Positions 9,336-60,809 are shown, counted from the first letter of the stretch. The stretch: DNA of 64,000 bases from Mayamaea pseudoterrestris (GCA_027923505.1 BROI01000016.1:1-64000); one strand, 5' to 3'. Notes: generated from the letters alone by a model not told the origin. Translations and numbers: made by a program.

Positions 9336-12300
9336 TTAGAGCGGGCAGATTTCCACTTGACCGGACAAGTACTTTCGGTCGTCGGTGCCCAAGGGAAAGA
9401 CTTCATAGACAGGACCCCAGTTACTTCTTACAGTGTTGCTACTGTTGAATGTAAAGGTATTCGACGATTGAGGTCCTGACGTAAGGGGGTACGTGTCGGG
9501 GTCACGCGCGAACTTGGCGACGTCGTCTGCCAGGCATACTCCGGTGTCCAAGTGGTCGCCAGAATCGTTACCGATGCATTCGCCAGCATAGAAATTGAAT
9601 TCAAACGTATAGGCGTCACTCGAGTAAGGGGCAAGAAGTGTGACACTGAAAGAGCTTGGGGTGATTGTAGCTGTTCCAATTTTTGTGCCTCCCTCGCAGT
9701 TCTCGGCTTCGATAAAGACTTCGCAGTCATCAACGACTCCATCGACGGAGCTATATTCAATGTTCCAACCCCAAGGCTCTTGCCCATCTACACCAGCAAT
9801 GCAGTTGAATGATGAATCTAGGAAGCACGTCGATCTGTCTGCACATTTAACGTATGCATCCATGCATGGACTCGGAGTTGAACTTGTTGGGACACCAACG
9901 ACGTCGTCATTAATCGCGGCCAATTTGGTTGGAACAAGCGTAGTGAGAGGGAGGGCAGAGGTGGGACTTGCCGTTAAGTCGCCGTCACCATCGCCGCCAA
10001 ATGGGGGGTTAGCCGTACTAACTGTAGTGGGTGTTGTTGTAGCCGGGCTAACGGTAGTAGCCGGAATTTCTGTGTGCTGTGACGGTGGGCAGTCATCCGT
10101 GAGAGGATCACTAGAGGGCACTGGTGTTTCCTCAGTAACAAGCAGCGTCGTTGGAACCTCTGTGGGTGCCGCAACAGCGACTGGCGCTTTTGACACTGGA
10201 GAAGCGGACACGGGCGCTGCTGAAACTGGAGCAGCAGAGGCAGGCGCTGCAGAAATTGGAGCCTTAGACACAGGCGCCGCTGAAACTGGGGCGGCTGAAA
10301 CTGGAGCCGCGGATACAGGCGCTGCTGAAGCTGGGGCGGCTGAAACTGGAGCCGCAGAGGCAGGCGCTGCTGAAACTGGAGCCGCGGATACAGGCGCTGC
10401 TGAAGCTGGGGCGGCTGAAACTGGAGCCGCAGAGGCAGGCGCTGCTGAAACTGGGGCGGCTGAAACTGGAGCTGCTGAGACTGGATCGATTGAGACGGGC
10501 GCCAAAGACACAGGCGCAGCCGATACTGGAGAGGCAGTAACTGGTGCAGAGGTTGGCTTGACAGTCTCTGGGACATTGTACATTGTCGGTGTGGCGGTAA
10601 CTTCCGGAGTGGTTGGAAGTGGAGCGGGTGCTATCGTTGGCGTAGAAGTTGCATCAGGGACTGGTTTTGATGACGGTTCAGGGGTTCCCTGCTCAATGAA
10701 AAACGGAGTCGGAGCCGGTGTGGTGGGGCAGACGCAGACGCATTCTGATGGTGCTTCGACGGGAGCCGCGGCTGGTGCTGCGACGATTTGATTGACCGGT
10801 GACCGAGTGACTGCTCCAAGTGAGGCCGACGGTGCAGAAGTCATGGCCAATGAAGGCTTGGCCGTTGGACGAGAGGTAGTTGATGGTGTTGGAAGCGGCG
10901 TTGCACGACCAGTTGGAGCGCCGGTGCGTGGACGCATGGTGCGACGTGGTGTTGAAGGCGAAGTTGTCGGAGTTCCAGTTGGGACGGCTACAGGTGCATT
11001 CATGGGTGCAATCACTGTCGCCGGATTTGGGACCACCAATGATGTCGGTTCTGCTCCTCCTTGCTCAGCAAGGGGTGCTGTTGTTGGCTGTTGCGGCGTG
11101 TATGCGCAAATCTGAGCATGACCCGAAAGATAAAGTGGCGTGTGCGTGTCAAGTGGAAAAGTTTCATACTTGGTGGTCGCAGATGCCCATGCAGCGGTAG
11201 TATAGGTTTCCTGGTTGTTAAAGTCGTACAACCATCGGTTCGTGGCGGACTTGATGTCTAGCGGTGTTGAGACAGGGTAGTTGTAAATATCATACGGTGC
11301 ATATTGATAGCTTCCGCACTCCATGTCATTCAACCATGAGCCTCCGTTGTCATTCATGACACACTCGCCAGCATACAATTGGAATCCCATGCTGGCATAC
11401 CCCTTTTTAATGTACCAAGTCACAGTGTCGCTGTCAATGGTGGCAGTTCCAAGCAACTCTCCTTCGTCCATGGTACAGCTAGTTGCGCCGCCCCAAACCT
11501 CACATTCCAAGGGACCGCTTGCGCCAAAATCGTAGTCTGTCAAATTAATGACCCATCCACTGGCAGCATCCGGTGCCATGACACCGGGGTAGCTGTCAAA
11601 ACAAGTCGACATGGCAGCACCACAGTAGATCCAAGAGTAGGAGCAAGTTTCTTCCGACACGCTCGACGAAGGTGTTTCCGCTGGTGCCAGCGTCTGCGGA
11701 GTCATGAATGACGTTGGGAGCTCCGGCGACAATCCGGTCGGCGTTTGTGCTTGGGCACCGGTCTGCGGAACCAGCAACGATGTGGGTAGATCGGTAGACG
11801 CTGTCGGCGAGACTGCTGGTGCAAGTGTCTGTGGTACCAGTTTTGCTGTTGGTAACTTGGTGGGAGACAATGTCGCAGGTACGCCTGTCGGAACAGTCGT
11901 TGGCTTTGGTGTTGGTCCTTCCGAAGGAACGTTTGTCGGTGAAACAGTCTGCGGCACAATGTTCAAGGTGGGTTCCAACGGAATGAACGGAAGTGTATAC
12001 TCTGGAGTCGGAACGGGGGATGGCCGAGGCGTGGCGCTGGCACTGGTGGGCTGTTCCGTAGGAGCTGGCGTTGACCCGCTCGTTGGCAGTGAAGTCGGTC
12101 TTGGGGATGGAAGTGGAGTCACGCGAGCCGTTTTTGGTGCTTTCGATGGCGACGCGGCCAAAGCCTGTGTAGGTGCTGCGGTAGGCAATGGTGTGGGTCT
12201 TGGGGAAGGAAGTGGGGTTGGGCGAGCCGTTTTTGGGGCTTTGGACGGACGCGTGGTGGTAGCCTGTGTAGGTAAGTTCGTCGGCAAGGGCGTCGGAGGT

Positions 12301-13230
12301 AACGTTGGAATAAGAGTCGGGCTGTTAGTCTTTGGTGCTTTGGTCGGTGATGAGGTCGAAACCGGATTGGGGCGATCAGACTTTGGTGCCTTTGTTTCCT
12401 TTGGGGCTGGCGTGATTTGTGGCTGAATGTTTTCAACCCGAGTGGGCCCTGGCGTCGGTTCAGGACCTCCGAGCTGCAGGAAAAGGAGAAATTAATCAGT
12501 AAAGGATATCTCATTGATTTAAAGAAGCGCGTCAATATATACATACCGTTGCAAACGGCGCTTCCGTCTCATCATTCGGCAAGAGAGGCTGCTGCGTGTC
12601 AATGTCACCAACGGTAGGCTGTTCGGAAGGCATCGAGGACGGTTTCGCGGATGGTCGCTTTGACGGTCTCGAGGAAGGTCTAGCGGATGGAGCTGGAAAC
12701 ACGGTGATGGATGGCTGCTGCGTGTCAAGCGTTGGAGTTTCGACGGGTGACGTAGTAGGAGCATCGGTTGGCGATGGAACATTGGCTTGTGTCGGTGAAT
12801 TAGTTGACGGCGACGGAGCATTGTTAGCTGATGGCTGTTCATTATCGTCAGGCGTGGGAGCTCGGACGGGTGATGGTGCGCTCGCTGACCCCGAATTTGA
12901 CGCCGACCCTGAGATTGTATGAACGCTCACTTTTTGAGCCGAGCCGCCAGAGTTTGATCCGGACTGCGCCGCCCTTCGCCTACGCTGGTACTCTTTGATT
13001 TGCTGCAATCTGCTGCGATCCAAGGACTTGCGAGTGCTGCCTCGAACGTTGCTTGCTTGACTATTAGTCTCAACGTTCCATGCGCTGGCTGCTTCGTTGC
13101 TTCGTCCGTACTTTTCACGCACTTGTCGCCACTTTGGAATCGACTTGTCTTCGTCTGTGGCTGCTGCCTGCGTTACTGCAGCACCAGCTGCGCACATGGC
13201 AAGGACAGCTAGTAAATGTAGCTTCATCAT
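9336..13230 (-). CDS. Secreted Pro/Thr/Ser/Ala-rich mucin-like glycoprotein A with two Cys-rich globular domains; intron 12474-12546
   Basis: Signal peptide MMKLHLLAVLAMCAAGA and basic propeptide. The splice APFAT|LGGPEP keeps frame into ORF 9336-12287. SAAPV repeats; Cys domains at ~11100-11650 and ~9340-9870. Confidence 0.88.
10180..10545 (-). repeat. 15-bp coding tandem repeat encoding (S-A-A-P-V/A)n
   Basis: More than 20 consecutive units such as tcagcagcgcctgtg / tcagccgccccagtt. Confidence 0.92.
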
Positions 13231-14205
13231 AATCAAGTATATGTTATCTGCAATACAAATTAAAAGAAAATGATAATAGATGTGAGATTTTTTAACAGCC
13301 TGCCTTGATGATCGATCATTGATCATCGATCATCTCTGAACGAAGTCAACCAGTCGTCGAGCTCGTACAGTCGACCTTTCGATGCGCTCAATCGATCCTA
13401 CCTTAAATCACTCTTCGCTATATACTAGGAATAAAGGAATTGGGTGCAACAAAAGAGTCGATTGATGGATTTTGTGTTGGTGCGAGACGAGTTGCGACCC
13501 CGCACACACAATTTGAAACGTAACGGACCCACCAAAGCACGCCGGCCGAGGCTGCACGATCATAAACTTAGGGCAAGTTGTGCTCGACTTTTTCCGTTGT
13601 AATTCAAATCAGGTTGCGTGTTCCAAATTTGAGCCAATGGAAACGCTGCAGTTTCATTACAGGAGTCGGAACGGTACTCCTCGACGCTTCACAAGTTCTT
13701 TCTTCTTTCTCCAACTGTCAATAATCTGTTATCTTGTACCATGTCAACTGGTAATTTCATAAAGAAGCCAAATGAATACGATCAAATACGTTTGTTGATC
13801 CTTTTACAAACGGCGAGGCGATTGCAAAGCTATCGTCCGTCGTCCTGTCGTCCAGCGTCAATCGTCAATCGTCGGTCAGGCAGATGCATGACAAGTAACA
13901 AAATCCACAGCGTCAATAGACACTTTGCTATACCGGAAGTCCAAGAAACTTTGGAAAGCTTATGCGTCTACTGGTACACGGTTATTGCATACAGTACAAC
14001 TTACCACATTCTTTAAGCACCAAGGATCTTTAATTGGCAAACGAACAAACTGTGTCGAATACCGTACAACTACTCATTAGTGTGCTAAAGAGATGTAGAA
14101 GTAACTGATATTCAAGTTCTAAATATATGCACTGTCCAAGACTCTATTTTCGACGCAGTTTCACATGTTGATTGTCAAGTTCGTGTGGGGCTTGATAGAT
14201 TTCCT

Positions 14206-17200
14206 TTACACGTCCGCGGAAGCTGAGAAATATGTAGGATCTAAGTTTGGATCGCCAAGCGGATCCAAAGCAAACGTTGGAGCTAGAGTTGGTGCAGCCG
14301 TGACAGGTGCAGCAGATACAGGCGCTGCAGTGGCCGGCGCACCAGTAACCGGTACACTTGTAACTGGGGTGGCTGTTGGCTCTTCTGTCAACTCTGGATC
14401 GCCAAGAGGAACAAGTGCTAGTGTCGGAGCTTGAGTAGGTGTAGCCGTGACTGGAGCGATCGAATCGATTGCTGCCATGGTCGGTGCTTCCGTCATAGGG
14501 ACACTTGTTACTGGAGCAGATGAAATAGGTGCGGCTGAGATAGGCGACGCAGGAGCTGTTGTGACAGATACTGGTGCCGCAGAAGGAGCGTTCGAAATTG
14601 GAGCAACAGAGGGACTAGCAGACGCAGGGGCGCTTGAAATCGGTGACGCACTCACTGGGCTGGTGGAAGCAGGGACGAATGTCTCCCCAGCAGTCGGAGT
14701 TGAAGTTTCTTCTTCACCTCCTTGCCCTCCAAAAGGAGCTGCAGTGCTTGGGCTTTCCGTCAACATTTCTGAAGGAGGACAGTCCTCAACAGCAGTTGGA
14801 ACAGGTGTCGCTTCAGGAACTAGTGACATCGTTGGTGCTGCTGTGACTGGCGAACCAGAAACTGGTGCAGATGAAACCGGGGCGACAGAAACTGGTGCGG
14901 AAGAAGCAGGGGCAGCCGAGACTGGAGATGCCGAAAGAGGAAGCGTTGGCGCTGGAGTGTCTTCTTCATTTCCTTGGCCACCAAAAGGTGCTTGGCTACT
15001 TGGACTATCCGTCATCATTTCTGAAGGTGGGCAATCCTCGTGAACTGGCATTACGGAAGGCGCTGGAGTCGCCTCTGGGACTAGGGGCAACGTCGGAGAA
15101 GCAGAAACTGGAGCCACCGACACTGGCGCAGCCGAAACAGGTGCAAGTGACACTGGCGATGATGTAGGCTTGGTAGTTTCTACTGCGTTCGGAAGTGATG
15201 GCGCAGAAGTGACTGGTGCAGACGACACAGGCGAGGCACTAATCGGAGCTGCTGACACTGGTGCAACACTGACTGGAGCGGCTGACACTGGTGCAACACT
15301 AACTGGCGCACCTGATACTGGTGCGGCTGAGACAGGCGAGGCACTGACTGGTGCGGCTGACACTGGTGCAGCACTGACCGGAGCGGCTGATACAGGCGAG
15401 GCACTGACTGGTGCGGCTGACACTGGTGCAGCACTGACCGGAGCGGCTGACACTGGAGCAGATGACACAGGTGCTGCCGAGACGGGAGCAGAAGATGCTG
15501 GTGCGACTGAAACTGGTGCTGCTGATACAGGCGACTTGGTTGGCTCAGGACTGCCCTGTTCGATGAAGGAAGGTGTTGGAGAAGTCGTTGGGCACACGCA
15601 GACGCATTCCGAAGGAGCAGCTGTAGTCTCAACGGGTGCCGGCGATGGGGCTTGCGTGGTGATTGGTAGCGTTGGTGCTGCAGTCATTGCAAGAGTCGGC
15701 TTGGCCGTTGGACGCGGCGACGGCTGAGGTGTTGGACGTGGAGTTGGTCTGCCAGAAGGCATGAAGGTAGGCTCGCTGGTTGGACTCTCAGTTGTCGGTC
15801 TCCTTGTGCGAGGAGCCTTGGTAGGCGAAGAAGTGGGCCGTCCAGTTGGTGAAACAGTCGTGGGTGCCTTTGTTGGAGATGTGGACGGTGCCTTGGTAGG
15901 AGATGCGCTTGGTCCTTCGGATGCCGTGACAGTCGGTGAAGCAGTCGGAGACGCAGTCGTTGGTGCCTTGGTTGGACTGGTAGTTGGAGCCGGCGTCGGG
16001 GAAACACTGGGTCCCTTGGAAGCTGTGACGGTTGGTGAAGCTGTAGGGCTTGCTGTCACTGGCGCCTTGCTTGGAGCCGCTGTTGGCGCCGATGTTGGCG
16101 CCTTGCTGAAAGGAGCTGCCGTTGGCAAAGGAGTTGGTTCGGCTCCACCCTGTTCCTCAAATGGAGCAGCACTTGGAGTCTCAGCAGCATACGCACAAAT
16201 CTCGGCTTGTCCGGATAGGTACAACGGCGTGTGCGAATCCAAAGGAAAGGTATCGTATTTTTGTGTTCCGAACGTCCAGGCGACAGATGTGTACTCGTCC
16301 TGATTGGTAGAGCTGAAGGACCAACGGTCAGTGCCGTCAATGATTGGCATCGTCGATGAAACAGGGTAGTTGAATACGTCATATGGGGCATATTGGTAGC
16401 TTCCGCATTCCATGTCGTTCATCCACGAACCGCCGTTGTCATTCATGACACACTCGCCAGCGTAAAGTTGGAACCCTGTGCTGGCGTAGCCCTTCTTGAT
16501 GTACCAGTTGACCGAGTCAGTATCAATAGTTGCAACACCAAGCAACTCTCCATTGGCCGTGTCGCAACTTGTTGCTCCTCCCCAAATTTCGCATTCCAGT
16601 GGTCCTTCGGCTGCGAAGTCATAGTCAGTCATGTTTATGACCCAACCGCTAGCCTCCTCAGGAGCTTTGATTCCTGGGTAAGTGTCAAAGCATGTTGACG
16701 TTTCAGCACCGCAGTAGATCCAGGAGTAGTAGCAAGGGCCCTCTGGCTTTTCATGGGCGCAATCAGTTGGCGCAGGCGTCTGTGGGATCTGAAGCGCCGT
16801 AGGAATACCGGTTGGTGATGCAGTAGGCGACACAGATGGAGATCCAGTGGGCGAATCCGTCTGTGGCACCTGAAGTGCCGTCGGGACGCCAGTTGGAGAT
16901 GCGGTGGGAACGCCAGTAGGAGATGCGGTGGGGACGCCAGTTGGGGAATCGGTTGGTGATACTGTTGGGCCTCCCGTTGGTGCGCCGGTCGGTGAAGACG
17001 TTGGCGATCCCGTAGGGGAATTGGTCGGTGCACCGGTTGGGGCCGCCGTCGACGAACCAGTCGGAGCAGGCGTCCCTTCTGGAACAAATGGCAAGGTTGG
17101 CAAATCTGTTGGAGAAGCAGTGGGTCCATCGGTGGGATTGCCAGTTGGTGATGCAGTCGGTCCACCAGTAGGTAAGCCAGTTGGGGCGCTCGTTGGAGCC

Positions 17201-18579
17201 GCCGACGGACGTGAAGAAACTGGTTTCATGGTCTTTGGTGGCTTGGTAGGACTTGAAGTCGGCGAAGCAGTAGGAGATCCAGTTGGTGACTTGGTAGGAG
17301 AATCAGTTGGACTGCCCGTTGGCTTGGATGTAGTTACTTTATCTGTCGGACGAGGCGTGCGGACAGGAGCAGCCGATGGACTTCCAGTGGGCCTGCCCGT
17401 GACTGGAGCCTTGGTAGGTTTGTCAGTTGGGGATGCAGTCGGTCGGCCAGTAGGGCGCTCTGTTTCCGGAATTTGAAGAAGCGTGGGAAGGCCAGTCGGT
17501 GAACCAGTCGGCATCGGAGTTGGAGACGCAGTTGGTGCATTTGTTGGAGCTGGACTAGGCTTGCCAGTGGGAGCAGGCGTCGGCACAACAGTTGGCTCAT
17601 TCGTCGGCTCGGGTGATCCAAGAGGAACGAATGGAAAAGTAGGCAACGTGGTTGGCGCCGGCGTTGGAAGTGGAGTCGGGCGAGGCGTTGGCTGAGCAGA
17701 CTGGGGCGCTGGGGTTGGCTGCGGCGTCACTGGAGCTGGAGTTGGTCCATTCGTCGGACGAGGAGTGGGGACAGGTGTCGGCCTGGGGGTCGGATTTGGA
17801 GTTGGTCCATTCGTCGGAAGGGGTGTTGGGGCAGGCGTCGGCTGAGGAGTAGGATTGAGTGTGGGACCATTCGTCGGGACGGGCGTTGGAGCAGGCGTCG
17901 GAGCTGGCGTAGGTGCTGGAGTGGCAATTTTGACTGGAACAGTCGGCTCGAGAGTTGGTTCAGGGCTTCCGAGCTAAATAGACGGAAAGAAGTAACGGTG
18001 AGCAAATGGTTCTGAAAAACGATTATGCAGCCCAATCAATAGAATCAATCTTACCGACTCAAACGGAGCTTCCGTGCAATCCTCAGGCTGAACTGGCTGA
18101 CCGGCAGGCGGCCAAGTGTAAGTAGGCGACTGGACCGGTGGACGGTTCTCCACGGACGCAGATCCTGAGCCCGACCAATACGCGGCGTTTACGTCAGTCG
18201 ACGACGATCCTGAATACCCTGCCGTTCGACGCTTGTTTTGCTGCAAGTGACTGCGGTCCAATCGACGAGTATTACCGCGAAAGCGACTGCTCGAGTCGGT
18301 CGTTCCGCCGGCTGCAGTGAACTGCGTGCAGTCGGATCGCTCCTGAATATCAGTTTCGGGCGATCGGTCTTGCGTCGTCGTCGTCGTCGATGTATCAGTT
18401 TCGCCAGCTCCGTAAATGGCTCGCGCCTGCCGCCACTTTGGAATGTGCTCCTTGGAAGCCGCAGCTTCGTACTTGCGGAGGGGCTTGTCGCTGGACGCTT
18501 CCGTCTTTTTGCCAAAGAGTGAGGCATTGGAAGTGCCGGCGCACAAGGCGAAAATGAACAAGTGATGCAGTTTCAACAT
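14206..18579 (-). CDS. Secreted mucin-like glycoprotein B, tandem paralogue of A, one Cys-rich domain; intron 17974-18054
   Basis: Signal peptide [19 protein letters not shown] and shared IPKWRQ. Same intron position as A (APFES|LGSPEP). PTxS/SAAPV repeats; Cys domain ~16190-16740. Confidence 0.88.
15205..15535 (-). repeat. 15-bp coding tandem repeat encoding (SAAPV)n
   Basis: Alternating units tcagccgcaccagtc / agtgctgcaccagtg. Confidence 0.92.
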
Positions 18580-37469: not shown

Positions 37470-40400
37470 CTATACAGAGATTGGATCATTAGGATTCTCA
37501 AGCACACACATATCGTTGAGGCAGGCGTAGACGTCATCGCCCGACCAAACGCCAAGCTGCTCTTGCAGGGTTTTGCGAAATGCATCATTCGCAAACATGC
37601 CCTTGATAAACGACTTGTCAGCCAAGTGCATCAAACGTGACATGACGCGTTGCGCCTTCTCTTTAGTTAAGCTTGCATCCGCAACACGTTTATCATACGC
37701 AACTTTGCCAGTCTGATCCATCTTCGTGTTCTTGAATGCGCTCGTAATGAATTCCATTCGCTTCACAGAAAGTACAGCGAAGAGTAAAGCGCGTTGGCGT
37801 TCACTATCTGAAGCCATTATTTTGCGTTCATATTGCTCATTGGCAAATGTTTCGAGAAAGGCAACATTGTCAGCGACAATGCAAAGCGGAGCGTCAATTA
37901 AATCCTCGATGAAAATTGGGATCTCGGCTTTGATTTCAGTCTGCAACCTCTTAAGCTCCGCACCGTTGACGCGGGGGTAGTTGTTCTTGACGCGAACCTT
38001 CTCGTAATCAGCCCCGTAGTCAATTTTTATCTCGATCGGCTTGTCCACTTTGAGAACAAATTCCTGCCGAAAATGTCCCAACAGGTAGTGCATCTATTTG
38101 AACCGCAAAGAATAGTAAGGCACACAGTTTCATCTGAAATTGATAAAAACACTCCAAGCACTCACCTGCCCAGCTGGATCCCTCCGTGCAATCACACATG
38201 GAATCTCGATTCCGTCAGTTTCGTTTACAAAGGGAAGAATATTGCATCGTGCAGTCTCCTTAAGCTGGCCAGTACGGACATTGTCTCCAATATCGATAAA
38301 GTCGGAACCATCCTCATCAAGCACCCCAAATGCGTAGGTGTCAGCTTTGAAATTATGAATAGAATTCTTGCAACGAAACTGCTGATGAGGCATGTAGTCC
38401 TCAGGTCGACCGTAAACACCGATGTCAAGAAATACTCCCGGAGACAGCTTGAAGCACTTTGAGTTTTTTGTACTTCGAGAGGCCGATTTACAAACTAGAA
38501 AGCATCCCAAGTTAGCTTCCACATGATTGATGGCAGATTGAGTAACAAAGAAAGTAAGTTCCCAACCATTGTACGAGAGCGTGCGGGAAGGCAGACCATT
38601 TGCGCCCAACTGTGCCCGAACTGTGCTTGGAACTCGCCAGATCGCGTAATCGTCATGGAACTTTTCGGTGTTCGTCATTGAGTATGAATGACAATACCCT
38701 AAATACCCTCCAACAGTATCGGAGTAATCGAGGTTACAAAGTGTGGTGATAGGGGTGCGACGGTCGACCGCTTCACTTTTCAATCGATTCACCGATGACT
38801 CGTTCAAACAGACTGTAAAGCGCTCCACTCCACCAGCGACGTAGCAAGCCGATATGGTCCCTTCAACAGAGCAAGGCCTGTTGTTTGCATCCCACCAATC
38901 GTGTCTGTAGTCTTTCCCCAGAAGTGGATGCTTGTCGAGTTTCTGCATGTACGCCAACCCGAAAAAGTCATTCAGCACATCGGTCATTTCCGGAGCGGCA
39001 TCATTTTTTTGGGTAAACATCGGAAAGGTTTTCCAACCATAGACCCTGCCGCCCGGACTGAAGAAGCGAAGGGACACAGAATCAAGTTTCGCGTGAGAGC
39101 TGTCGCACTCGTCGCGGTCGGTGCAAGCAACAACAGTCAATGTCCATCCTGGCCACCGCAAAGGGAGTTTTGCCTGCATGCGGCTACACAACTAAAAGAT
39201 GTAACGATGCTGAGAGAAAGAACGCTTAAGTTCGAATGAGATAAAAAGAAAGTCATCATATCGCACTCACCTTGTGCAAGCAAACAACATCCTTCGTGTT
39301 TGTCTTGCACATCAAGCATGCGCCACAATCATCCTTATCGCACATGGCACAGATACCACAAGATCCATTCTTAAGCAAACGGATATATTCTATGTAGTTG
39401 AAAGTTTTACATAGTGCGCTCTCATTGGCATCGGCCAAAGCATCATGTTGCGTCGGACACAAAACATCTGATGCGCCGCTGCGTTCGTTACGCGTACCTG
39501 TGTATTTCAGGGCACTCCCACTCCCACTTACCGCATCTTGATTGTGCTTTAATCGCCGGCCAGGCGACGATCGAAAGCCTACCTGCTTTTTCTGCTCTAC
39601 GCCCGCATGCGTGTAGAAAGCCACCACATCGACATGCTCGAGTTGCTTTCGACTGTGGTTGATAGCATTTTCGAACGAGATATACCGACGTACGCCGTTT
39701 GGAGCTAACAACACGATATACGGAGCTTGATGTTCAGGCCGAGCCATTTTATGGAAGGCAAATCTCCATCCTTTGGGAAAGCCCTTCGCAGCGAGCGCCT
39801 TTGATTCCAATGGAATTTTTTGGCACATGGTCTGTAAATGAAATAGACAGAGCGGTTAATAAGAAATCGCGAAATAGAAACACGAAATGCACGATGCATA
39901 CTACCTGAATGCAACTCGGTCCTTCTCGACAACCGTAGCAGCGAGCGCAAGGCGCCGCCGTGCAAAAGTAACAAGATCCGCATCGCTGTGTAGGAGACAT
40001 CGATGCTGCTTCGTCCTGCTTCAACAATCCTCGATCCAGTAATCCTTGCAAGGCTCCCAAATAAGCAAGATTCTCATTCGGAAAGTGTTTGATCAAATGA
40101 GTCGCAGTGTAATAATCCTGAAGAATAAAACACAGATATTTGTTAGGTTGATACTGGTCGACCCATCGAGTCAGCGAGAAGTCGTACCTTACGAGGGACA
40201 TCATGGCGTCGGTCGCCGTCTTCAAACTCCACTGATACAAAAACTGATCTACCAACGTGTCGCTTCTCTGTCACCTCGCCCCAATAGTATCGCTGTAGAG
40301 CAGTGTAAATAGATGAAACCAGTGTGAGGCAAGTCAAGTGATTAGCAGCGCAAGAGATGAGCCTTTATATGCCACAGAGCAATATATACGTACCCCTTTA

Positions 40401-41086
40401 TGCTCATCACGGTCCCATACGCAGTAAACAAGTGATCCTACTCGCACATGATGCATGTCGACTAGCAGGTCATCGTCCGCATCCTTGGGCTCGCCGCGTG
40501 CTTGACGCGCTGACACCTTTGCCGAAGCTGTACCCTTACTAAAAGCTTGCTTTGTTGCAGCCCCCATCTTTGGATTGGCGGCTGCTTGCGCAACGTTCAT
40601 TGGACTGCTGACCATTGTCTTGCGTGAAGATAGTCGCTTGTACGCGGTAGTGTTTGCGGCCATGGGGGCTTCCTTGCGCTTGGCAGCACTTGTACGTGTC
40701 GCTTCGACTTGGGCGACTCCAGCCATGGGATCCATAGTGGCGGGATACTCGTCATCCATTACTTCACTCTCGCTGTTCATTGGCTCCGCGCGAGTCGCAA
40801 AGAAGGATGATGTAACGACTTGAGGAGGAGCATGAGCTGCTGCATCAATCAAGTCTTCGTCTTTAATGTCACCGCAGATGGAAATGGCTGACGAGTCGGA
40901 TCCATCATCGCCATTGCTATTGATATTATTGCTGTTACGATTGAAGGTTTGATTCAAATGATTCATTCGGCTTGGAAGAGCAAGCGGGGAATCTCCCGCC
41001 GAGAAACCTGATGATGACTGATCATCATCATAGTCCTCAAACTGTCCATTGCTGGCCAGCGAATGCTTGAAATTATGAGCCGACAT
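37470..41086 (-). CDS. Putative chromatin protein A: Tudor-like, CXXC, MBD-like, CXXC, MBD-like, SET-like; 6 exons
   Basis: Introns 40293-40393, 40118-40187, 39832-39904, 39192-39270 and 38094-38165 are all GT-AG, phase 0, and join the ORF pieces in frame. Confidence 0.78.
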
Positions 41087-41703
41087 TGCGTCAAAATTGT
41101 CAGTATTGCGACTCGACGTTATTCAAGCAACTCTTGTAGTAGCTGCTCTTCTGTTATCGAATGGCTTGAGAGTAAGTAGAATGATTCTTGCTGGAAAACT
41201 CGGCGAAAGTTGCTGCCAAAGAACAAAATTAATCGAGAGCTTGACTGTCACAACTGAGCGATCAATGTATCACTTCAATCCTCCCAGCTTTGTACTATCG
41301 CTACAATATGCGACACCTGGAAAGAAACGTCGTCAATCTCAATACTCGCCGGCAATGGGAGGCAGGAATAATCAACAAGAAAATCTTGCGGTCGAAGCGC
41401 GCACTTGTGTCGCGCACGTGTGTGACGCCCCGATGCCGCGCCAAGATACAGTTAAAACCGCTGCGTCGTCGTTACTGTCGCGAGCGACAGTGAGCTACCG
41501 TAGGCATACGATACGATAGTTTGCGACGCCTGCCTTACGACAGCTAGCTTGATACAAAATGAATCATCAATTAGAGCAAACATACAGCTAGTGTCTTTGT
41601 CTATGTTGTGGAGTACTCGTAATCAAAACGTGTGGCGCGACTCAAGCATCACTGATGACACCCAGTGCCAGCAAGTCATGGTTTAGGTGAGAGCTGCCAC
41701 AGA

Positions 41704-44700
41704 TCAAAGGCACATTGTATCGTACCAGGCATCAAAGTCGCCAACTGTTGCTAATCCAAGAGACTTTATGATTGGTTCAAGATAAAACGGATCCGCAAGC
41801 ATGTTGTGCAACAATGATGGCGCCAGCATGTTCACCAAAATTCGTACCGCAGCCAGAATGTTTGCCTTCATGGTAGCAACGTCGATCGCGGCTGCCTCAC
41901 GATTCGCGCCCATTACCGCTACATTGTCGTCTTGGGCATTGATCTCATGCAGCAAAATAATGGCCACCAACAGTGCGCGCTGATGCGCTTCATGCTGAAC
42001 GACATGTACGCGGCGTTTGACTTGCTTGGCAAAGTTTTTCAAAAAGGCAGCATGTGCGGCGAGTACATCCGGTGTTGCGTTGACGCATGACTCAATATAG
42101 TCAGAGTCTTCTTCTTCAATTTCGCGTTTAAAAACGTCCAACTGCTTACCAGTTACGCGCGGATAGTTGTTTTTAATGCGATTCTTCTCGTACCCAGCGC
42201 GGTAGTCATTTTTCACTTCATATTGCTTGCCTGGCTCAATTTTGAATTCTACAAACTGATGGCCTAAATGGTAATGGATCTGCGCATGTATAAGGGTATC
42301 GATTGAGACGAGGAGCGTGGAAACGGAAACGAAGAACCGCCCTTATCACTTACTTGGTTAGCAGGGTCAGTTAAAGCCATGATGCATTCGATTTCGATGC
42401 CGTCCGTTTCGTTTACATAAGGCAAAATGTTCCTGCGCGCGGCTTCATTGAGATCTCCGGTAAGATCATCGCTAACATCCAAAACCCGGCGCTGCTTGCC
42501 AATGGCAGGGACATCGAATGCGTATCTGCCAGGCTTGCCCTTGTGGATAAAGTCCTTCAATTTACCAAGCGATTCAGGTATACAGTCTTCAGGTCGTCCG
42601 TAGACACCAATGTCAATAAACTCGCTGGCGGCCAGCGTCATGTACTTGAGATTTTTGGTGGCGGGTGAACAGCTTTCGCAGGTGACAAAGCATCCCAAGT
42701 TTGCCTCCTTGTGGTCAATTTTGGACCGCTTCACTTCGAATTTCAACTTCCAGCCCCGATAGAAAAGCTCACGACATGGCAAACCACTCGCATCCATGTA
42801 ATTGCGAACGCTTCCAGGCACGCCCAACGTCAAGGCACAATCGTCGGTTTTTACGGCAGGGAGCTCAAGTGAATGATGCTGAGCATACGCAGCGACACCG
42901 CTCCAAGTGCACATATGCTCAAGGCGCTGGACAGCTGAGACTGAAAACTGGCCGCCGTTGGCACTATTATGCGACTGGACATATGCGTCGTCATAGCGGA
43001 TAATGAACTGTGTCTTCGTGACATTTGTAATCGTCCCTTCGATGCATTGTAGCCGACCTTCCATATCAAGCCATTCGCGTCGAAAGCCTCGCCCCAGAAA
43101 CGGATGATTCGCAGCGCCAGTGCTCGTGATTTTGAGTCCAAACATGGCTTTGACAAATTTCGCCTTGTGCGAAGCTCCGTCGCGTCTTTTTGCAAAGGCA
43201 GGAACACTTGCCCACTTGTACACCCTACCGCCGGGGCCGCCGAAACGAATCGACACGGAGGCGAGATCTGGATGAACTACGTCTTCATTGTCTTTCTTAG
43301 TCCGGATGACAACTTTAAAACTCCAGTCCTTCCATTTTGCCAAATGCAGAGGAATCCATGGCGGCTTCATTTGGGAGCATGGCTATGTTGGCGATTAACA
43401 ATTTTTAGCATGTGGTCATATTACACATCGGAAAGCAGCAGCCATCATCCTTACCTTAAGTAGACAGACCTTGACGTTTCCTTTCATCTTGCAACCTTGG
43501 CAATTACCGCATTCACGCTTCATACAATTGGAGCAATTGCCACAACATTGATTCCGCATCGTCACGAGGCCTGTTTTGAAGTCAGCTGGCCCGACGACAC
43601 TTTTCGTGCCGCGTTTGTTCCACAGTCCCTTCTCAATCAACCCCGGCAAAGCTCCTATGTATTCGAGTTCAGCTTTGTCGCCACTGGCGACCATGAAGTC
43701 CGCAGTGTAAAAGTTCTAAGCGTGGGGGACGACGCAGGTCAGCCAACGGTAGCGCAATGGTTCATGTAATGACAGCACACCAAGACCATACCTTGGGCGG
43801 CACATTGTCTAGAGTATCGCCATCGTCAAACAAAATGGACACCGTAAACGAATTGCGATTCGCTTTCTTCGCAATTACCTTACCCCAAAAGTAGCACTGC
43901 AGGTTCGAAGGAATCGTAACTGTAAGTGAGTCTGGCGAATGAATAGAAGACAAAAATAGACCATGTCAAGACTTACTCCATCAGCCTGATCGCCTTTCCT
44001 CGTCCATTTGGCAAAGACGATTGATCCTTTTTGAACATCTTCGCTACCAGTTCCTTCTTCCATTCCCACTTCGTCCACATCCGCACCCGCGCCGTACGCA
44101 TCAGCATTGCCATCCAGTCCAAACTCCTCCTCGTCGTCATCATCCTGCAAACGCTTAGGCATGCTTTGACGGCGTCTTTTTGTTGTTACATGTGTAAGGA
44201 TGAACCGATCGGTACGGGTTCGAGACCGCTTGGCTGGCAATTGCTCTTCTTGTGTTTTTAATTCGTCACTTGCAATCGGATACGCCAACAGATCATCGTT
44301 CTTCTCGTCGGCCTCACTACCACTTTCTTCGTCTTCAAATACAGCATCCATTGCCGACGATGCATCTCCAAATTCCGATTCGCTCGTCGAGGTCATTTCA
44401 AGCTTTTGCGCAAGTGACTGTGGGGCAACAAGAGACGGAGCAGCCGCGAACAAATTGCTATTGTCACCTGGACTCATCTTCAGCAGCGACTGATTAGAGA
44501 ATATCTCGTCCAATATTTCATGGTCTAGATTGGTTTTTGGCGCTCTAGCCGACTTTGCACCGAAAAGTTCCGAGGGTCCGTCCGTGCCATGTCGAGCCGC
44601 GGTTGCCCGCGCTATTACGTCTGCACTCTGCAGCACTGAATCGCTTCCAAGTGCATGAGAATGCGCCGTCGCGGCAAATCGAGACGACTTGATGTTGTTG

Positions 44701-44858
44701 CTGCTGCAAACGGAGACTGGAGGTTCAATGTCTGATGCGACTGAAGAACGATTGTCAATTTTGTTCTCATCATTCATCGAGCTACTCTTCGCGCACTTTT
44801 CATCATTTGCAGACGAACTGACTCGATCATTCTCGATACAGGGGTTCTCCTCCAACAT
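41704..44858 (-). CDS. Putative chromatin protein B, tandem paralogue: Tudor-like, CXXC, MBD-like, SET-like; 5 exons
   Basis: Introns 43897-43976, 43716-43791, 43383-43454 and 42280-42353 lie at positions homologous to gene A. Shared EANLGCF, DIGVYGRPED, NILPYVNETDGIEI, NNYPRV. Confidence 0.78.
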
Positions 44859-45534
44859 ACTCGCTCCTGCTAATGTTGATGTCGTATATAGAATGAATTG
44901 CTTGCAATATTCTGATCTCGGCTGTACGGTAACTGTTTCTCACGCGAAAATCTTGCTCAATTTTACGACTAAGCTTGCGCAGGTCTCGCTGACGGTAAAA
45001 GTTGAATGGTGCAAACAAAAGGCAGATGTTGCAACTGAAGTGAATAAGTCGATGCGTTGCTCGTCAATAAACAACTCTTGCTTGCTAGTATCTCGTTGTT
45101 CTCGCAACGAAGAAGTGAAGATCCGCGACGCGAGAGATTTTTTGCGCGCCGTGTGCCTGGCCGGCGCGACGAGAATTGAGTACCGCTACGATTAGTCGAC
45201 ACACGAAGCACACACGCCCACATTCGCTTTACCCGTTACCGCCGTACTATTCGACGCGCGCGCGAGCCATTGAGCTCATCGTCGTCGTCTCGAGCTTGTC
45301 GATCTCCTTGTATTCTCGTCGAGGTGAGCATCATGGGGTTGTTTTATGCTGAAGAGGCGAACCAGTCGACTGAATTATTGATAGAAGGCCATGCGTAGCG
45401 CAAAATCTTCGGTTGCAGGAATCAAAGCTTTGCCTTCATCGACTGCCGTCATTGTATGAGCTTGTTTCTCAACTTCCATTTTCTTGTTTCACCTCCATTC
45501 TTCAGTCTCTAATATCAAATAAATATAATAAAAA

Positions 45535-45819
45535 ATGGGTAAGCGCACAAAGAAGGTCGGAATCACTGGTAAATACGGAACCAGATACGGTAGTACACTC
45601 CGTAAGCTTGTCCGCAAGATTGAAGTGAGTCAACATTCCACCTACCGCTGCGTCTTTTGCGGCAAGGATTCCGTCACGCGAAAGTGCGTCGGTATTTGGA
45701 AGTGCAAGTCCTGCGCCAAGGTGGTGGCGGGTGGAGCCTACACGTTGAGTACGCCAGCGGCGGTGTCGGTGCGATCCACCATTGGACGACTGCGCAAGAT
45801 GCAAACGGAGAATCCTTAA
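45535..45819 (+). CDS. RPL37A: 60S ribosomal protein eL43 (L37a)
   Basis: [24 protein letters not shown]...CVFCGK...GIWKCKSC...GGAY. Confidence 0.98.
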
Positions 45820-55176: not shown

Positions 55177-58100
55177 TTATATTTGACGTCTAAGGACCCT
55201 TCGATTCGTCGTCGAGCCGTCGGCAAAAGTACAGAGTGAGCCCTTGCAACATGTGTCGTAAGCCGTTTGAGTGTAGCCCGCCGCACATACATCGGGATCA
55301 TAGTCGACGACAGACTTGGTGCAGAAAACGCCGCCGCCTCCGCCGCACTGTGATGCTTGAATCCTGAACGAGCCATAACCAAAGTTCGGAAGACGTATTC
55401 CGTTCCGTTCAAATCGCGGAATTGCATAATTGACCTCGTCGCGAGCAATCATATTCCAAGTTGGGACACCCAGCCAGTCTGGATTCCCTGTCCACGTGCG
55501 CGCTAGCATGAAGACGCGAAAGGTTAACACGCCCGAAGCATCGACATGGTACACGTTGCCCGCTCCCGTTCGTACAAGATCGATTGAAGCAACCGAGTGC
55601 AGATACTCATGGCAGCTTGACGAGCCATCCCAATTATCCCAACACCAACTTTCAGCGTCTGCACTTATGCTAAACACAGTCCCGACAGGATAGGCAATGC
55701 TGAGCAGAAGAGTATCCTGAGGAGCAACCTCAATCTGTGATATTGTCAAATCGCGAGGTGCTCCGCCGTTCAGCTTCAATATCCAGCCAAATCCGCCAAC
55801 TGGGCCGACAGTGTCCGGATTGGCAGTAATAGCAAGGCCTTGGCTGGTACCAGAATGCATTGGACTAAATTTATAACCTGCGTGTCGAATGTAGCCTTCG
55901 GCAGGACATGGTGCATTGTTGCCGTTCCCGCAGTAGTCATTTCCCGTTTTGTCATGCAAGGCTGGGTTCCATTCAAAATGGACATGAGCAAGTCCTCTAC
56001 TAGGTCCATTGTTCTTCTTGATAAAGCTCACAGGACCTTGCTCGTCAAACGTGACATCATCGTCCACCCTCCACCAATCTTTTGCGCTTAGTAGGCCCGA
56101 TCCAATTAGAACTGGCTCACCAAGTCCAGACGCTGTCCCATCCATGTCCAACCAGTTCTGGCAGCGGCCCGACACAGTATCCTTAGAACCCATGGTGTAC
56201 TTAAATCGACGACCGCAGTCTGTAAATGTGAGCGCCTTGGTGGCTTGCATTATTTCTGGCACAAACTGATCAGAATGTGTTAAAAAGCCAAAGGTGGTAG
56301 ACGAGTCGCTGCATCCCTTGGCACCGTCCAACTCGGTACCACAACCTCGCGTCGGCGACGTTTCGTATTGGTCGAGATCATCTGATCGATAGCCACAGTT
56401 CTGGAAAACAGCATTAGTTATAATGTGGCTCTGGCCAGTATCGTACCAATAGAATCCGCTGCCCTCTAACTTGGCAGCTGTTCCGGGAATGGGGAGGCCG
56501 AGATCTTCGCCAGTTCGACAGGCGACATACATGTTGTCTATCCAAAACCCGTCAGAAAGCGCTTCAATAGCGAGTCTTTGATCGTACGCTTCAAACCCTT
56601 TAACATTCATTTGACCAGTCCACGAGTTGAGACCAACGCCGGCTGTCAAAAAAGTCTTGGTGTTGGTAAAGTTGAGCGGTAAAACATCCTCTTCAGCGCA
56701 CCAGCAATATGCGCCCACACAGGACTTATACTCGGCGCAGGGCGAGCGCAAGTCTCGGTCAAAATTTCCACGACCAGGGTTGTAGCGCAGACTACCATCT
56801 TCTTTAAAGTATAGCGACCCACCGACGTAAAGCGCGCCTGCATGCTCCCACCAAAACCCAGTCGAATGAGCTGTGTTGCCGTCAAAGGTCAGTACACTTG
56901 CACTGCCTGGTCGCAAAATGACATCATTGTGAAGACCAATGGGCTTTTCAAGCACTGGAAAGGCAAATCCGGACCATCCCTGTTAATCGTAAGAGGAAGG
57001 TGACAGGAGATCGTAAGAACATCTCACAGGACAAAACATTGTTCGCACCAATAAAACTTACTCCGCTGGCAGCATTACCAAAAATGCAATTGTGAACATT
57101 GGTGATGTAAAATCCAGACGCTGCTACATCAGCTGGCAATGTCAGCTCGCTTCCAGCCACTTTCGACGCATCATAGTCACTCAACCCTTGGCTGCTGCCC
57201 GACGGAAGCTCGGGACCAAGCGTATGAATGTGAGCGGCGAGGTTGTAGGAGATCGTATTTTCCTCTTCCACGCCATCTTCCAGATAGTAACAATATCCAG
57301 TGACGTCGTAGGCAACATTTTCGGAAACGGTTGCCTTGTTTGTACCATGCACGGATATACATCGATAGTATGATCTATGTACCGAGCTTTCGCGAAAATA
57401 GCAGGTCGGACATTCGTTAAGCAGATGAAAATGCATTGGATAGCGACCCAAAACATTGGTTTGGCCCATGCGATAAAGCTCAATACCTTCAACCTGAGCA
57501 GTTCCAGTTCCAAGCACCATGACGTGTCCGCCAAACCCAGTTTTCATTGCGTTCGTGTTGGGCCTTGGAAGGTTGTAAAGAAAGTGCCAATTTGGATACG
57601 TGGTCACTTTAAGGTTCAATAAATCTTGGTCAGTTGGCTCCGAATCGTCCGCTGCACCTTGAATGACAATGGTCCGCGACAAAAGGCCCGCTTCTACTTG
57701 ATAGTAATTGTTGGCAACGTGCTTATACTTTGTCGGCTGCATCAAGTGCACCACAGCACCAACTCCAGCCGGTGTATCTGCCGCACTGGCAACTTGATAG
57801 ACTGTGACTACCTCGTTTTGATGAAATGCCCGCGAGTCGTACATGATGCTTGACGTCAAAACTACTTCTTGTCCACGTTCCCAGTTGACTGGTTGCTGAA
57901 GCAAGAGCACTGTTTTGCCAGCTTCTATAGTTTTGGCAAGTCTTGACCATGTTGCGTAGTAGCGCTTCCCGTGCAGACTCAATTTTCCAGTCACCACAAT
58001 ACCCTTGGTAGTCGGACTTGGAACGTTTTGAACAACGTCCACTGGCCGCGCGCCCCAGAGAGTGATGCTCGTTGGCGTTTCAATTCGACAAGTCTCGCTT

Positions 58101-58732
58101 CCAGCCACAAGTTTGCCCTTAACGTCCACACCTTTGACGAGCATTGTGATTCCAGCAGAATTCTCTCCCAAAATCAGGTCAGTCGACGCTGGAACAGTAA
58201 TAACGCCAAGTTTCTCCAAGACGGACTGTCGAACGACAATCTTGGATCTAGCCGGAAGCGTCACATCGGCTCCAGCGCTGGGAATCGCACCACTTGGCCA
58301 AGTGCTCGCATCATGCCAACTCTTCAAGCCACTCTGCAGATGCGGACAGTTGGTTCGTGCGTTGCCTTGTATAATTATTGGAACTGGTGGATTTGGCAGA
58401 GAAATGACTTTGGAGTTTGTCGCCGATGTAATGTAGGGACCGCTAGGTACTGGACCCAAGGTGACCGCTGCCGATGGCGCTAACGTCGGCTTGATGGCAC
58501 ATTTTGCTAGGCACTGGTCTTGACACCTCTGCTTGACGAGTTTGCCAGTCGACAAGTCGGTCATGCGGCAGTACTTGCGCTTGCTTGCGACTTGACTGCA
58601 GCGAAGCGATTGTCGTACGTTATTGACGCGAACGACGACCTTCAACCCGACATCATTCTTGCACGCATGAGCAATCGAGTTGAACAAAACGATGAGGAGC
58701 AACAGTGCCCGTGGCGCCTTGCTGTGCCCCAT
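55177..58732 (-). CDS. Secreted G8-domain / beta-helix protein (fibrocystin/TMEM2-like); intron 56980-57061
   Basis: Signal peptide; WHDASTWPSGAIP, GKLVAGSETC, EAGLLSRTIVIQG, MGQTNVLGRYPMHFH, RCISVHGT, CYYLEDGVEE. The splice gives AASG|GWSGF. Confidence 0.9.
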
Positions 58733-60809
58733 TATCGCAATCCTTGGTCCCTTGTTAATTGACAAGCTCGATGCTGCGTGCTGCGCGTTTCCCTTCCCTC
58801 GATTCCACTTCCAACAACTGTTGTAATACCAAGCACGCCTAGAGAATTCTGCAAGCTTATTGAGTATCACGTAAAGTTGATCGAGTGGGATCAAACAATG
58901 TCGTTGCTCGCTTGTCTAAAGTTGTCGTCCCAAGCAAGAAAATTTTTTTGGGAGGGACCGGAACGGTCCCCCGGGGGACCGCAGGTCCCTCGAAGCGCGC
59001 GAGCGGGCGCCCGCTGACTCGGGAGATGGTGCGACGTGCGTGCATGAACAGCCATCCACACAAATCGTGTCATGTGCCGAAATCAACCAGCAAACAGGAA
59101 ACCAGCATCAGCAACAGCATCGAACGTTCGACAACAAACACAACAAGCAAAAGGAGAATAGAAAACGGCGACAACAACCTACGCACCTCCATGGCAATAC
59201 ATAGTGTGACGCACCTCAGCGCAGCAAATAACATGAATGGCGCGCCTCAGCATCGACGCCCGCAGCGGCCAGCGGTAGTCGAACGTCGAACATCACAGAC
59301 ATGCAGTCGAACCATGGAGAAGCGACAGACAAAGGCAGTTTCATTTGATCATACATAATGACAACAAGTTACAACTTTAATCAAGGAGAGTTGTGTCAAT
59401 GTGCCAAAATCAACTCGCAGCAGCAGCATCAAACGTTCGTCAAAACCAACACGCAAAAACGGCAAGCTCCTCCAAGCAGCCCCATCTTGTTGTTGCTAAC
59501 ATTGTCATTTGTTCTTTAAATCTTTAAAAAGCCGCCTCCAATGCTGCTATTGACAAGGAAATAAATGTGAGTGCAATTCACCATGGCCGCCGTCATGGAG
59601 CAGACACGCCTGCCGCAGCGCCGCAGTCCTTCCAGTTGTCAGAGTCATTCTCCCTACGGCCTCCTTCCTTGCCCGTTACATTGAGACAAATGATGATTCT
59701 TTGAATGGTGCATCAAACTCACTCTGACTGCTGATCCTCCTTTAAGTACTTGATTGGATTGACCGACATGCCCTCCGAGAACATTCCCATCCTTGTCGCT
59801 GCTCTGATTTAAGGCCCACACGGTGCATTCAGGGCCATTGTCTGCGCCCAGCGGTACCTTGCCATTGCGGGCTATACCACCCGCTGGATTACTTGATTCA
59901 CCGGTTTTGGTTTGGAGGTTTTCCGAGGCCCGGCAGGCGTCGAATTGACGGTGGCAGATTTCAGCCTCACTGTCAGTCAATTGGAGGCCACTTCACCAAT
60001 GTGCCAGTGACATTGGCGTGAACAATTAAAAGATTGCAAGCTTTGCGAGGGAGTTTCAAAGTGAGTGCAAGTGTGCACCTCTAGAATTGAGCACACTACC
60101 TTGCGCGCATTGGCTGACACAAAGTGGCAAGCTGCAAAGCAAACGGATGCGAATAGCAAGGTTCCTTTCAAGTCATTGAAGAATTCTATTGGGATCATAT
60201 ATTCCCAGTTTAGCAACCTACAAGAGTTCAAGTGGACTATTTAATGCTTTTATGGCCAGTAAGAGTAATAGTTAACACTATATTTACGTCCAAAGTACTT
60301 GTCACTTTTCTCTCGCGTCGGGACGCGCATCTTTCGTTCTCGCTTCGGTCAATACCGCAAAGACGGTTTGGTGTCGTACCGGTGTGGTCCCTCGTCGGTC
60401 CCTCGCATGTCTTCTATGCTAGAAAATCATCCTACCAGGTCACATACATGATGTTTCAAGCAAGACCAACATGGCACTCCAAGTTCGTAGAGGCTTATAT
60501 ATGTTTTTACTCAAGAACTCTTTGGAACATGTGGAAACGGCCATAAATGACCCACATGATAACTCGTTGGGCCGAATGTTCAATATCATACGAGTAGCGG
60601 GCATGCGGAGCAAACTTTAAATTCGGTAGCTAGGCAACCAGACCAGCGTCAATTTGGCTATTATATTTGATAGTTGCAAAAATGATGGTGGCGACAGCTG
60701 CAAACTTTGAAAATTGTGCTATACGATTGGAAAGTGACCTGCTTGCATCGAGACTCTCAAGGGAGAACTACAAAGCCGGCCTTCATTAGCAAACGCCAGA
60801 CGCTGTCAC

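Follow-up and report, generated by a model that had tools for sequence, protein, structure and literature searches.

A tandem pair of diatom genes encoding putative chromatin proteins with Tudor-like, CXXC, MBD-fold and divergent PR/SET-like domains

We analysed a stretch of 64,000 nucleotides (nt) of DNA from the diatom Mayamaea pseudoterrestris (GCA_027923505.1, BROI01000016.1:1-64000; hereafter the window), whose minus strand carries two neighbouring genes, here termed A and B. The two encoded proteins appear to be chromatin proteins and putative lysine methyltransferases, in which a disordered N-terminus is followed by a Tudor-like barrel, by either one CXXC zinc finger or two, with an MBD-fold domain after each, and then by a small beta domain; a PR/SET-like domain and a helical bundle complete the protein. 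We favour this assignment with reasonable, though not firm, confidence. As judged from sequence profiles and predicted structures, A and B are candidates for an unrecognised family of histone-methylating enzymes in diatoms; the design of a SET writer joined to reader modules is itself already known.

Gene structure, expression and relatives

An earlier note on this DNA, made from the sequence alone, had described tandem genes whose motifs are scattered over several open reading frames (ORFs). All of the motifs that it quoted are present in the stop-to-stop ORF track of the minus strand (37470-44939), each at its place, and manual splicing yielded clean models of both genes (Table 1). The interval considered runs from the final base of the gene A stop codon (37470) to the A of the gene B ATG (44858). 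All nine introns of A and B are of the GT-AG type and of phase 0, with lengths of 70-101 nt. The spliced products are letter-for-letter identical to the database proteins P0001 (A) and P0005 (B), which are labelled "hypothetical protein", Mayamaea pseudoterrestris, in GenBank and carry '-' in the precomputed Pfam field. Since the GenBank models equal ours, the gene structure had already been annotated correctly and the domain content alone was unrecognised. The suggestion that automated annotation could miss the architecture therefore applies to the naming of domains and not to the gene models.

The two proteins are 37% identical over 583 residues (BLASTP, expectation value (E) 3e-109), and their Tudor regions align at E 1e-20. 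The introns of the two genes occupy equivalent places: one splits the Tudor region, one stands directly ahead of the last Cys in each CXXC finger, and one interrupts the SET-like domain.

Transcript evidence was taken from the contigs of four coded sequencing runs of one study (X1-X4), which were aligned to the window. The contigs of X1 and X2 correspond to the unspliced DNA form of A and B. Those of X3 and X4 skip all five introns of gene A (joints 38093|38166, 39191|39271, 39831|39905, 40116|40187 and 40292|40394) and three of the four introns of gene B (42279|42354, 43715|43792 and 43896|43977), in agreement with the manual splicing; intron 3 of gene B (43382|43455) is without a covering contig in X1-X4. 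One contig of X3, 2817 nt in length, joins gene A from exon 6 through exon 1 with every intron removed. Because GT-AG introns have been removed precisely, we infer that the contigs of X3 and X4 are derived from cDNA. A and B are most likely expressed host genes of this raphid pennate diatom that arose as tandem duplicates and form one transcript unit each.

At positions 41228-41245 of the window, approximately 140-160 bases upstream of the gene A start codon, a series of single bases is absent from the contigs of X1 and X4. Other scattered differences from the window occur in all four runs, and most likely reflect strain or haplotype differences.

To collect relatives, exon 5 of gene A was used as the query in a full scan of a set of 1.84 billion representative proteins. 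The scan matched the 1073-residue protein (residues 525-866) and the 950-residue protein, both equal to the spliced models, and retrieved 177 representatives (clusters at 50% identity) with E ≤ 0.001, with 83 at E ≤ 1e-10. Of the 150 representatives listed, 30 were looked up for their organism, which gave names for 7 of the 30 clusters (Seminavis robusta, Entomoneis (two), Epithemia, Nitzschia and Amphora), all of them raphid pennate diatoms; the Seminavis robusta member bears the UniRef name "CXXC-type domain-containing protein". A second search with the consensus-like member P0056 again named Entomoneis/Amphiprora and Amphora, and the other family members come from environmental assemblies. 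Word-indexed searches returned 61 proteins for P0056, but 2 for gene A and 5 for alignment A2. The small numbers for the latter two queries stem from the low sensitivity of this kind of search, not from an absence of relatives.

The conserved core of the family corresponds to residues ~600-1000 of gene A. Upstream of this core, the number of CXXC fingers per member ranges from one to five and that of Tudor-like regions is one or two, and MBD-like modules are also present. The order Tudor, CXXC, MBD-fold, SET-fold is common to A, B and their relatives in other diatoms. Compared with gene B, gene A has an extra exon, exon 4 (39271-39831, residues 338-524), which is a symmetric phase-0 unit containing one MBD fold and Cys1-7 of a CXXC finger. 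It looks like a duplicated module, and the family would thus have grown by exon duplication. In every finger, an intron immediately precedes the last Cys. An exon unit of this kind could explain the one to five CXXC-MBD repeats of the relatives.

In alignment A2, 36 of the 97 other rows start with Met-Cys precisely at the homologue of the gene A exon 5 start (residue 525-526). This suggests a conserved intron at this place, at which the ORF calls behind many of the environmental "proteins" of the family would have been cut short. A viral origin was also considered and dropped: the matches to giant-virus SET domains in a viral structure library are weak (probability at least 0.9, E at least 8e-3) and no closer than the cellular ones.

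A full-text literature search, with subscription journals and supplements outside its scope, found no description of this diatom architecture or family, which is in line with the initial impression of an apparently undescribed protein.

Domain composition of A and B

The domain types proposed in the earlier note fared differently. The SET-like, MBD-like and CXXC assignments were borne out by structural models or by profile comparisons; the Tudor assignment is less well supported, by sequence profiles only, with three relatives passing a library model and A and B themselves sub-threshold.

The C-terminal half of A was modelled with AlphaFold2 (residues 525-1073, with a 98-sequence alignment), giving a mean predicted local distance difference test (pLDDT) score of 89.1 and a predicted template modelling (pTM) score of 0.86. 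When the model was compared with the PDB by Foldseek, the top matches were SET7/9 (E 9.5e-4), SMYD2, PRDM9, MLL1 and fission-yeast Set7, with probabilities of 0.99-1.00 for the compact alignments. A wide search of 48,161 representative chains with VIA-align also placed SET/PR chains first, namely SET8 (Z 9.5), Set1 (9.2), PRDM5 and PRDM3 (9.1), EZH2 (9.1) and SET7/9 (8.8); SET/PR chains occupied 26 of the 50 rows, the other 24 being helical bundles that match the C-terminus. In a second look with the same aligner, 45 of 50 rows were SET/PR, and PRDM9 was matched at Z 10.4 with a root-mean-square deviation (rmsd) of 3.7 over 158 aligned residues (chain length 173) at 16% identity. Furthermore, 27 of the 30 language-model neighbours belong to sets carrying Pfam SET or PRDM2_PR (score 0.92). 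These comparisons support the prediction that the C-terminal core of A has the SET/PR beta fold, in a form too divergent for standard domain libraries. What makes the assignment strong is that the methods agree, and not how high any single score is.

Conservation in the 98 sequences runs in the order of the classical SET motifs (GxG, NHS and ELxxDY). In the GxG-like motif G753 is invariant, and Y784 of a Gly-Val-Tyr motif is conserved at 99%. At the place of NHS, an Asn-Glu pair is found (N847 invariant, E848 98%), followed by a Glu...Asp-Tyr-Gly-x-x-Tyr motif in which E887, Y892 and Y896 are each conserved at 93% or more. Of 32 conserved positions checked, A keeps 30 and B 27. Such conservation points to purifying selection on a ligand-binding site, and it is from this selection on SET-motif-like positions that catalysis is derived; we lean towards an active, though putative, enzyme.

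Two further regions flank the PR/SET-like domain in the model. The small beta domain consists, in the numbering of the model, of strands E83-85, E94-100, E106-119 and E122-129 and helix H131-140, with H612, L614, W623 and G635 conserved, and several of the SET matches reach into it from model residue ~95. The C-terminal bundle gave generic helical-bundle matches only (Z 7-9), which are uninformative.

For the MBD-fold domains, exon 4 of gene A was modelled with AlphaFold2, and confidence is high in residues 1-80 of the model (block pLDDT 83-97). In Foldseek, ranks 1-36 for MBD domain 1 were all MBD or TAM domains, with MBD2 as the best match (E 0.027, probability 1.00, template modelling (TM) score TMt 0.63). 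VIA-align, which is independent of Foldseek, gave MBDs in all of its top 8 rows; MBD2 came first (Z 6.4, with 63 residues aligned to a chain of 68) and was followed by MBD1, AtMBD6, MeCP2, MBD4 and SETDB2 (Z 3.5), the first unrelated row having Z 3.2. The Pfam MBD model (PF01429) matched 1 of the 98 family members, at E 0.092, leaving gene A unmatched, and found nothing in the fragments of A or B. The model of domain 1 of gene A thus supports an MBD fold, and domain 2 of gene A and the corresponding domain of gene B are, by sequence alignment, probably MBD-like.

A regular expression for the full eight-cysteine CXXC pattern finds two fingers in A and one in B, and all eight Cys columns are invariant or nearly so in alignment A4. 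The family profile recognises solved CXXC domains, foremost that of DNMT1 (E 4.5e-6 in one profile search and 9.2e-10 in another), and also those of TET3, KDM2A, FBXL19, KMT2B and KMT2A (E 2e-4 to 9e-4) as well as CFP1 and MBD1. With Pfam zf-CXXC (PF02008), A and B are sub-threshold, at most 19.0 bits versus a cut-off of 26.5, and the relative P0123 passes at 28.1 bits.

The Tudor-like region is likely to be a Tudor domain, a reading that draws on homology: with Pfam Tudor_5, which models the Tudor of SETDB1, the corresponding region of the relatives P0093, P0123 and P0130 scores 37-41 bits and so passes the cut-off of 31.

Proposed function and alternative explanations

In the mechanism that we propose, the CXXC and MBD-fold modules would hold the protein on DNA or chromatin, and the Tudor-like domain would read a methylated histone residue. 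The PR/SET-like domain could then use S-adenosylmethionine to methylate a lysine, most likely of a histone tail.

Several observations weigh against this proposal. The Pfam SET model (PF00856) matched none of the 98 members at E ≤ 1 and gave no hit in P0001 or P0005, and a precomputed SET annotation is found on 0 of 61 relatives; a profile search of the PDB for a SET domain returned PRDM16 alone, at E 0.12-0.29 over 18 positions around the GxG-like motif. The structural Z scores of 9-10 are modestly above the background of 7-8 stated for the tool. G751, conserved at 91% in the family, is Asn in both A and B, and in 98% of the members Glu takes the place of the His in the classical NHS motif. 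The mapping of conserved onto catalytic residues follows motif order and not a residue-level superposition, and the SET call is a whole-fold match of the model. For the Tudor-like domain, A and B both fall below the cut-offs of the Pfam Tudor models, and the family profile matches the Tudors of KDM4C, BAHCC1, KDM4A, SETDB1 and 53BP1 weakly (E 0.08-0.8), at identical profile positions. In the CXXC fingers, the Cys6-Cys7 loop is 8 residues long in B and measures 5 residues in finger 1 and 8 in finger 2 of A, compared with 13 as the most frequent length among 38 family modules; where the profile is aligned to the DNMT1 CXXC domain, a five-residue gap falls in this loop. The CpG-reading residues of canonical CXXC fingers sit in the Cys6-Cys7 loop; with the loop shortened, CpG reading by the fingers of A and B cannot be taken as given. 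As for expression, the RNA nature of X3 and X4 is judged from the intron removal itself, the run type being unrecorded.

The earlier note had gone further and proposed a protein that couples the DNA-methylation state to histone or protein methylation. This goes beyond the evidence: the CXXC loops are short in A and B, and the methyl-CpG contacts of MBDs (two Arg, an Asp and a Tyr), when mapped by motif order, are presumably variable or hydrophobic in the MBD-like consensus of the family.

Among the alternatives, the one that survives best is that the SET-like domain is a pseudo-enzyme, its fold being kept as a binding or scaffold module, and that the proteins are multivalent chromatin readers or adaptors. 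The lack of Pfam SET matches among the 98 members, the family-wide replacement of the NHS His by Glu and the Asn at the first Gly of the GxG-like motif in A and B would fit with this, as would the appearance of the PR domains of PRDM3, PRDM5 and PRDM12 among the best structure matches, since many PR domains are not known to be active. On the other hand, conservation is very strong where cofactor and lysine-channel residues would lie (G753, Y784, N847, Y892 and Y896), and the best single match is the SET domain of PRDM9, which is enzymatically active and likewise devoid of the classical NHS His. We therefore regard a pseudo-enzyme as possible, though on balance unlikely.

A putative methyltransferase might also act mainly on a non-histone substrate, by analogy with SET enzymes that bear helical C-terminal lobes. 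A large helical bundle does follow the SET fold, and SMYD2 and SMYD3 are among the Foldseek matches with ~300 aligned columns; however, these alignments have an rmsd of ~20 Å and TM scores of 0.11-0.15, and Tudor, CXXC and MBD are chromatin or DNA modules. We consider a mainly non-histone role improbable.

It is still far less probable that A and B are transposon-borne or recently captured chromatin modules instead of host regulators. The family is multi-copy, fast-evolving and lineage-restricted (the 177 clusters described above), with tandem copies here, and a passage of a preprint (10.1101/2021.11.30.470311) mentions the capture of chromatin reader domains by transposons. However, the 28 large ORFs across the window gave, with Pfam, housekeeping domains or none, and no reverse transcriptase, integrase or transposase domain. 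The flanking genes are of the housekeeping type (ribosomal L37ae, V-ATPase subunit c and EAP30), the window further encodes aminotransferase, kinase and glycosyltransferase domains, and the spliceosomal introns of A and B lie at positions common to both paralogues.

The motifs might also be spread over separate genes, an objection allowed for in the earlier note, or have come together by chance. Either reading is suggested by nothing but the fragmentation of the raw ORF track and is hardly credible, given the X3 contig that joins the gene A exons without introns and the same domain order in relatives of other diatoms.

We thus retain the reading of A and B as chromatin proteins with a putative lysine methyltransferase activity. 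Diatoms carry methylation of lysines 9 and 27 of histone H3 (H3K9 and H3K27), together with CpG methylation on transposons. Eukaryote-wide surveys of chromatin enzymes detect SET enzymes mainly via domain-library models; because Pfam SET matches none of the 98 members, such surveys would not count this family. A more speculative and rather doubtful extension is that the family supplies raphid pennate diatoms with their missing lysine methyltransferase of heterochromatin, as a functional analogue of SETDB1 that would write H3K9 methylation or another repressive mark at sites chosen by the CXXC and MBD modules. If true, this would bear on the situation in Phaeodactylum, which has H3K9 methylation and, according to a passage of PMC8566409, an E(z) homologue as its sole H3K9 methyltransferase; likewise, a passage of PMC6586856 describes Su(var)3-9 homologues as seemingly restricted to unikonts and plants, with H3K9me3 present in diatoms.

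The family also provides a concrete, clonable candidate for studying how histone methylation is targeted in diatoms, an ecologically important group.

Genomic surroundings and comparison with known systems

Table 1. Positions of genes, exons and predicted domains in the window (residue numbers refer to the spliced proteins; aa, amino acids).
Feature	Position	Strand	Details
Gene A	37470..41086	minus	GenBank MPSEU_000746700; 6 exons, 1073 aa
Gene A exons (stop included)	41086-40394, 40292-40188, 40117-39905, 39831-39271, 39191-38166, 38093-37470	minus	manual GT-AG splicing
Gene A Tudor-like domain	40188..40447	minus	~aa 214-266, interrupted by intron 1; Pfam BAHCC1-like_Tudor E 4.5e-4, 20.5 bits versus cut-off 28
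Gene A CXXC finger 1	39823..39982	minus	aa 312-340; eight Cys (regular expression), Cys6-Cys7 loop 5 residues; intron 3 precedes last Cys; Pfam zf-CXXC E 0.56 on ORF fragment
Gene A MBD-fold domain 1	39592..39801	minus	~aa 348-417; in the extra module that B lacks; AlphaFold2 and two structure aligners
Gene A CXXC finger 2	39186..39360	minus	aa 495-526; Cys6-Cys7 loop 8 residues; intron 4 precedes last Cys; Pfam zf-CXXC E 1.5e-3, 19.0 bits
Gene A MBD-like domain 2	38964..39173	minus	~aa 531-600; position of the family's single MBD-like module, aligns with family consensus; AlphaFold2 pLDDT blocks 52-89 (moderate)
Gene A small beta domain with helix	38769..38945	minus	~aa 607-665; AlphaFold2 pLDDT >90; no fold assigned
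Gene A divergent PR/SET-like domain	37971..38744	minus	~aa 674-907, interrupted by intron 5; AlphaFold2 and structure searches
Gene A C-terminal helical bundle	37506..37964	minus	~aa 910-1062; AlphaFold2 helices H386-537
Gene B	41704..44858	minus	GenBank MPSEU_000746800; 5 exons, 950 aa
Gene B exons (stop included)	44858-43977, 43896-43792, 43715-43455, 43382-42354, 42279-41704	minus	manual GT-AG splicing
Gene B Tudor-like domain	43792..44036	minus	~aa 275-329, interrupted by intron 1; Pfam Tudor_5 E 0.022, BAHCC1-like_Tudor E 0.03; 35% identical to Tudor region of A
Gene B CXXC finger	43377..43544	minus	aa 387-418; Cys6-Cys7 loop 8 residues; Pfam zf-CXXC E 0.23; aligns with gene A CXXC finger 2
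Gene B MBD-like domain	43131..43364	minus	~aa 423-500, approximate limits; BLASTP alignment to gene A MBD-like domain 2
Gene B PR/SET-like domain	42157..42935	minus	~aa 566-800; limits transferred from gene A by BLASTP
Ribosomal protein L37ae gene	45532-45819	plus	Pfam E 9.8e-39; ~670 bases upstream of gene B start, opposite strand

Gene B and the ribosomal protein L37ae gene may share a divergent promoter region. Elsewhere in the window, a GC-rich block (0.55-0.57) with a strong positive GC skew of up to 0.235 extends over 9336-17973. On its minus strand, the block contains a pair of very long ORFs (9336-12491 and 14206-17973), the second with a PT-repeat match and neither with any other domain. 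A further ORF on the minus strand, 56948-58915, carries a G8 domain (E 9e-19) and a CEMIP beta-helix domain (E 3e-50), a pair better known in animal proteins.

With the KMT2/MLL proteins, CFP1 and MBD1, A and B have in common a CXXC finger in a protein that has, or recruits, a SET enzyme, and the SET domains of MLL1 and MLL3 match the model of A at Z 8.6-9.3. They differ from these proteins in the shorter Cys6-Cys7 loop, in the CXXC finger leading directly into an MBD fold as a repeated unit, and in being without PHD, FYRN or FYRC modules.

SETDB1 and SETDB2 are Tudor-MBD-SET methyltransferases of H3K9, and the SETDB1/SUV39 clade is defined by cysteine clusters before and after the SET domain (pre-SET and post-SET). 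The resemblance to SETDB1, which the earlier note had drawn, holds only for the order Tudor, MBD, SET; Tudor_5 is passed in three relatives, and the SETDB2 MBD is among the fold matches. Nevertheless, the family consensus has no conserved pre-SET or post-SET Cys clusters and no large insertion splitting the SET domain. CXXC fingers are an addition relative to SETDB1, and in structure the model comes closest to PRDM9. Among the matches listed, no more than two are solved SUV39-type chains, SUVH6 (Z 8.0) and G9a (Z 7.5), and both rank below PRDM9, SET8 and MLL. Since there is no conserved Cys cluster on either side of the SET-like core, A and B do not belong to the SETDB1/SUV39 clade. In the literature, a passage of 10.1101/2021.11.30.470311 contrasts the MBD of animal SETDB1 with plant readers of the SRA type, and the portion of PMC3145265 that lists diatom SET proteins does not include this type.

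The closest resemblance of the SET-like domain itself is to the PRDM proteins, an animal family in which a PR/SET domain is followed by an array of C2H2 zinc fingers. The methyltransferase domain of PRDM9 (PDB 4c1q) is the best structural match to that of A (Z 10.4), with PRDM3, PRDM5, PRDM2 and PRDM12 next at Z 8-9. The language-model neighbours carry PRDM2_PR, and PRDM16, at the GxG-like motif, gives the sole hint at the level of sequence. Like the PRDM proteins, the A/B family is without the NHS His and has a C-terminal YGxxY-like motif. A and B are not PRDM proteins, however, because Pfam finds no C2H2 zinc fingers in P0001 or P0005. Instead, their family occurs in diatoms, and its PR/SET-like domain is joined to Tudor-like, CXXC and MBD modules and is followed by a helical bundle.

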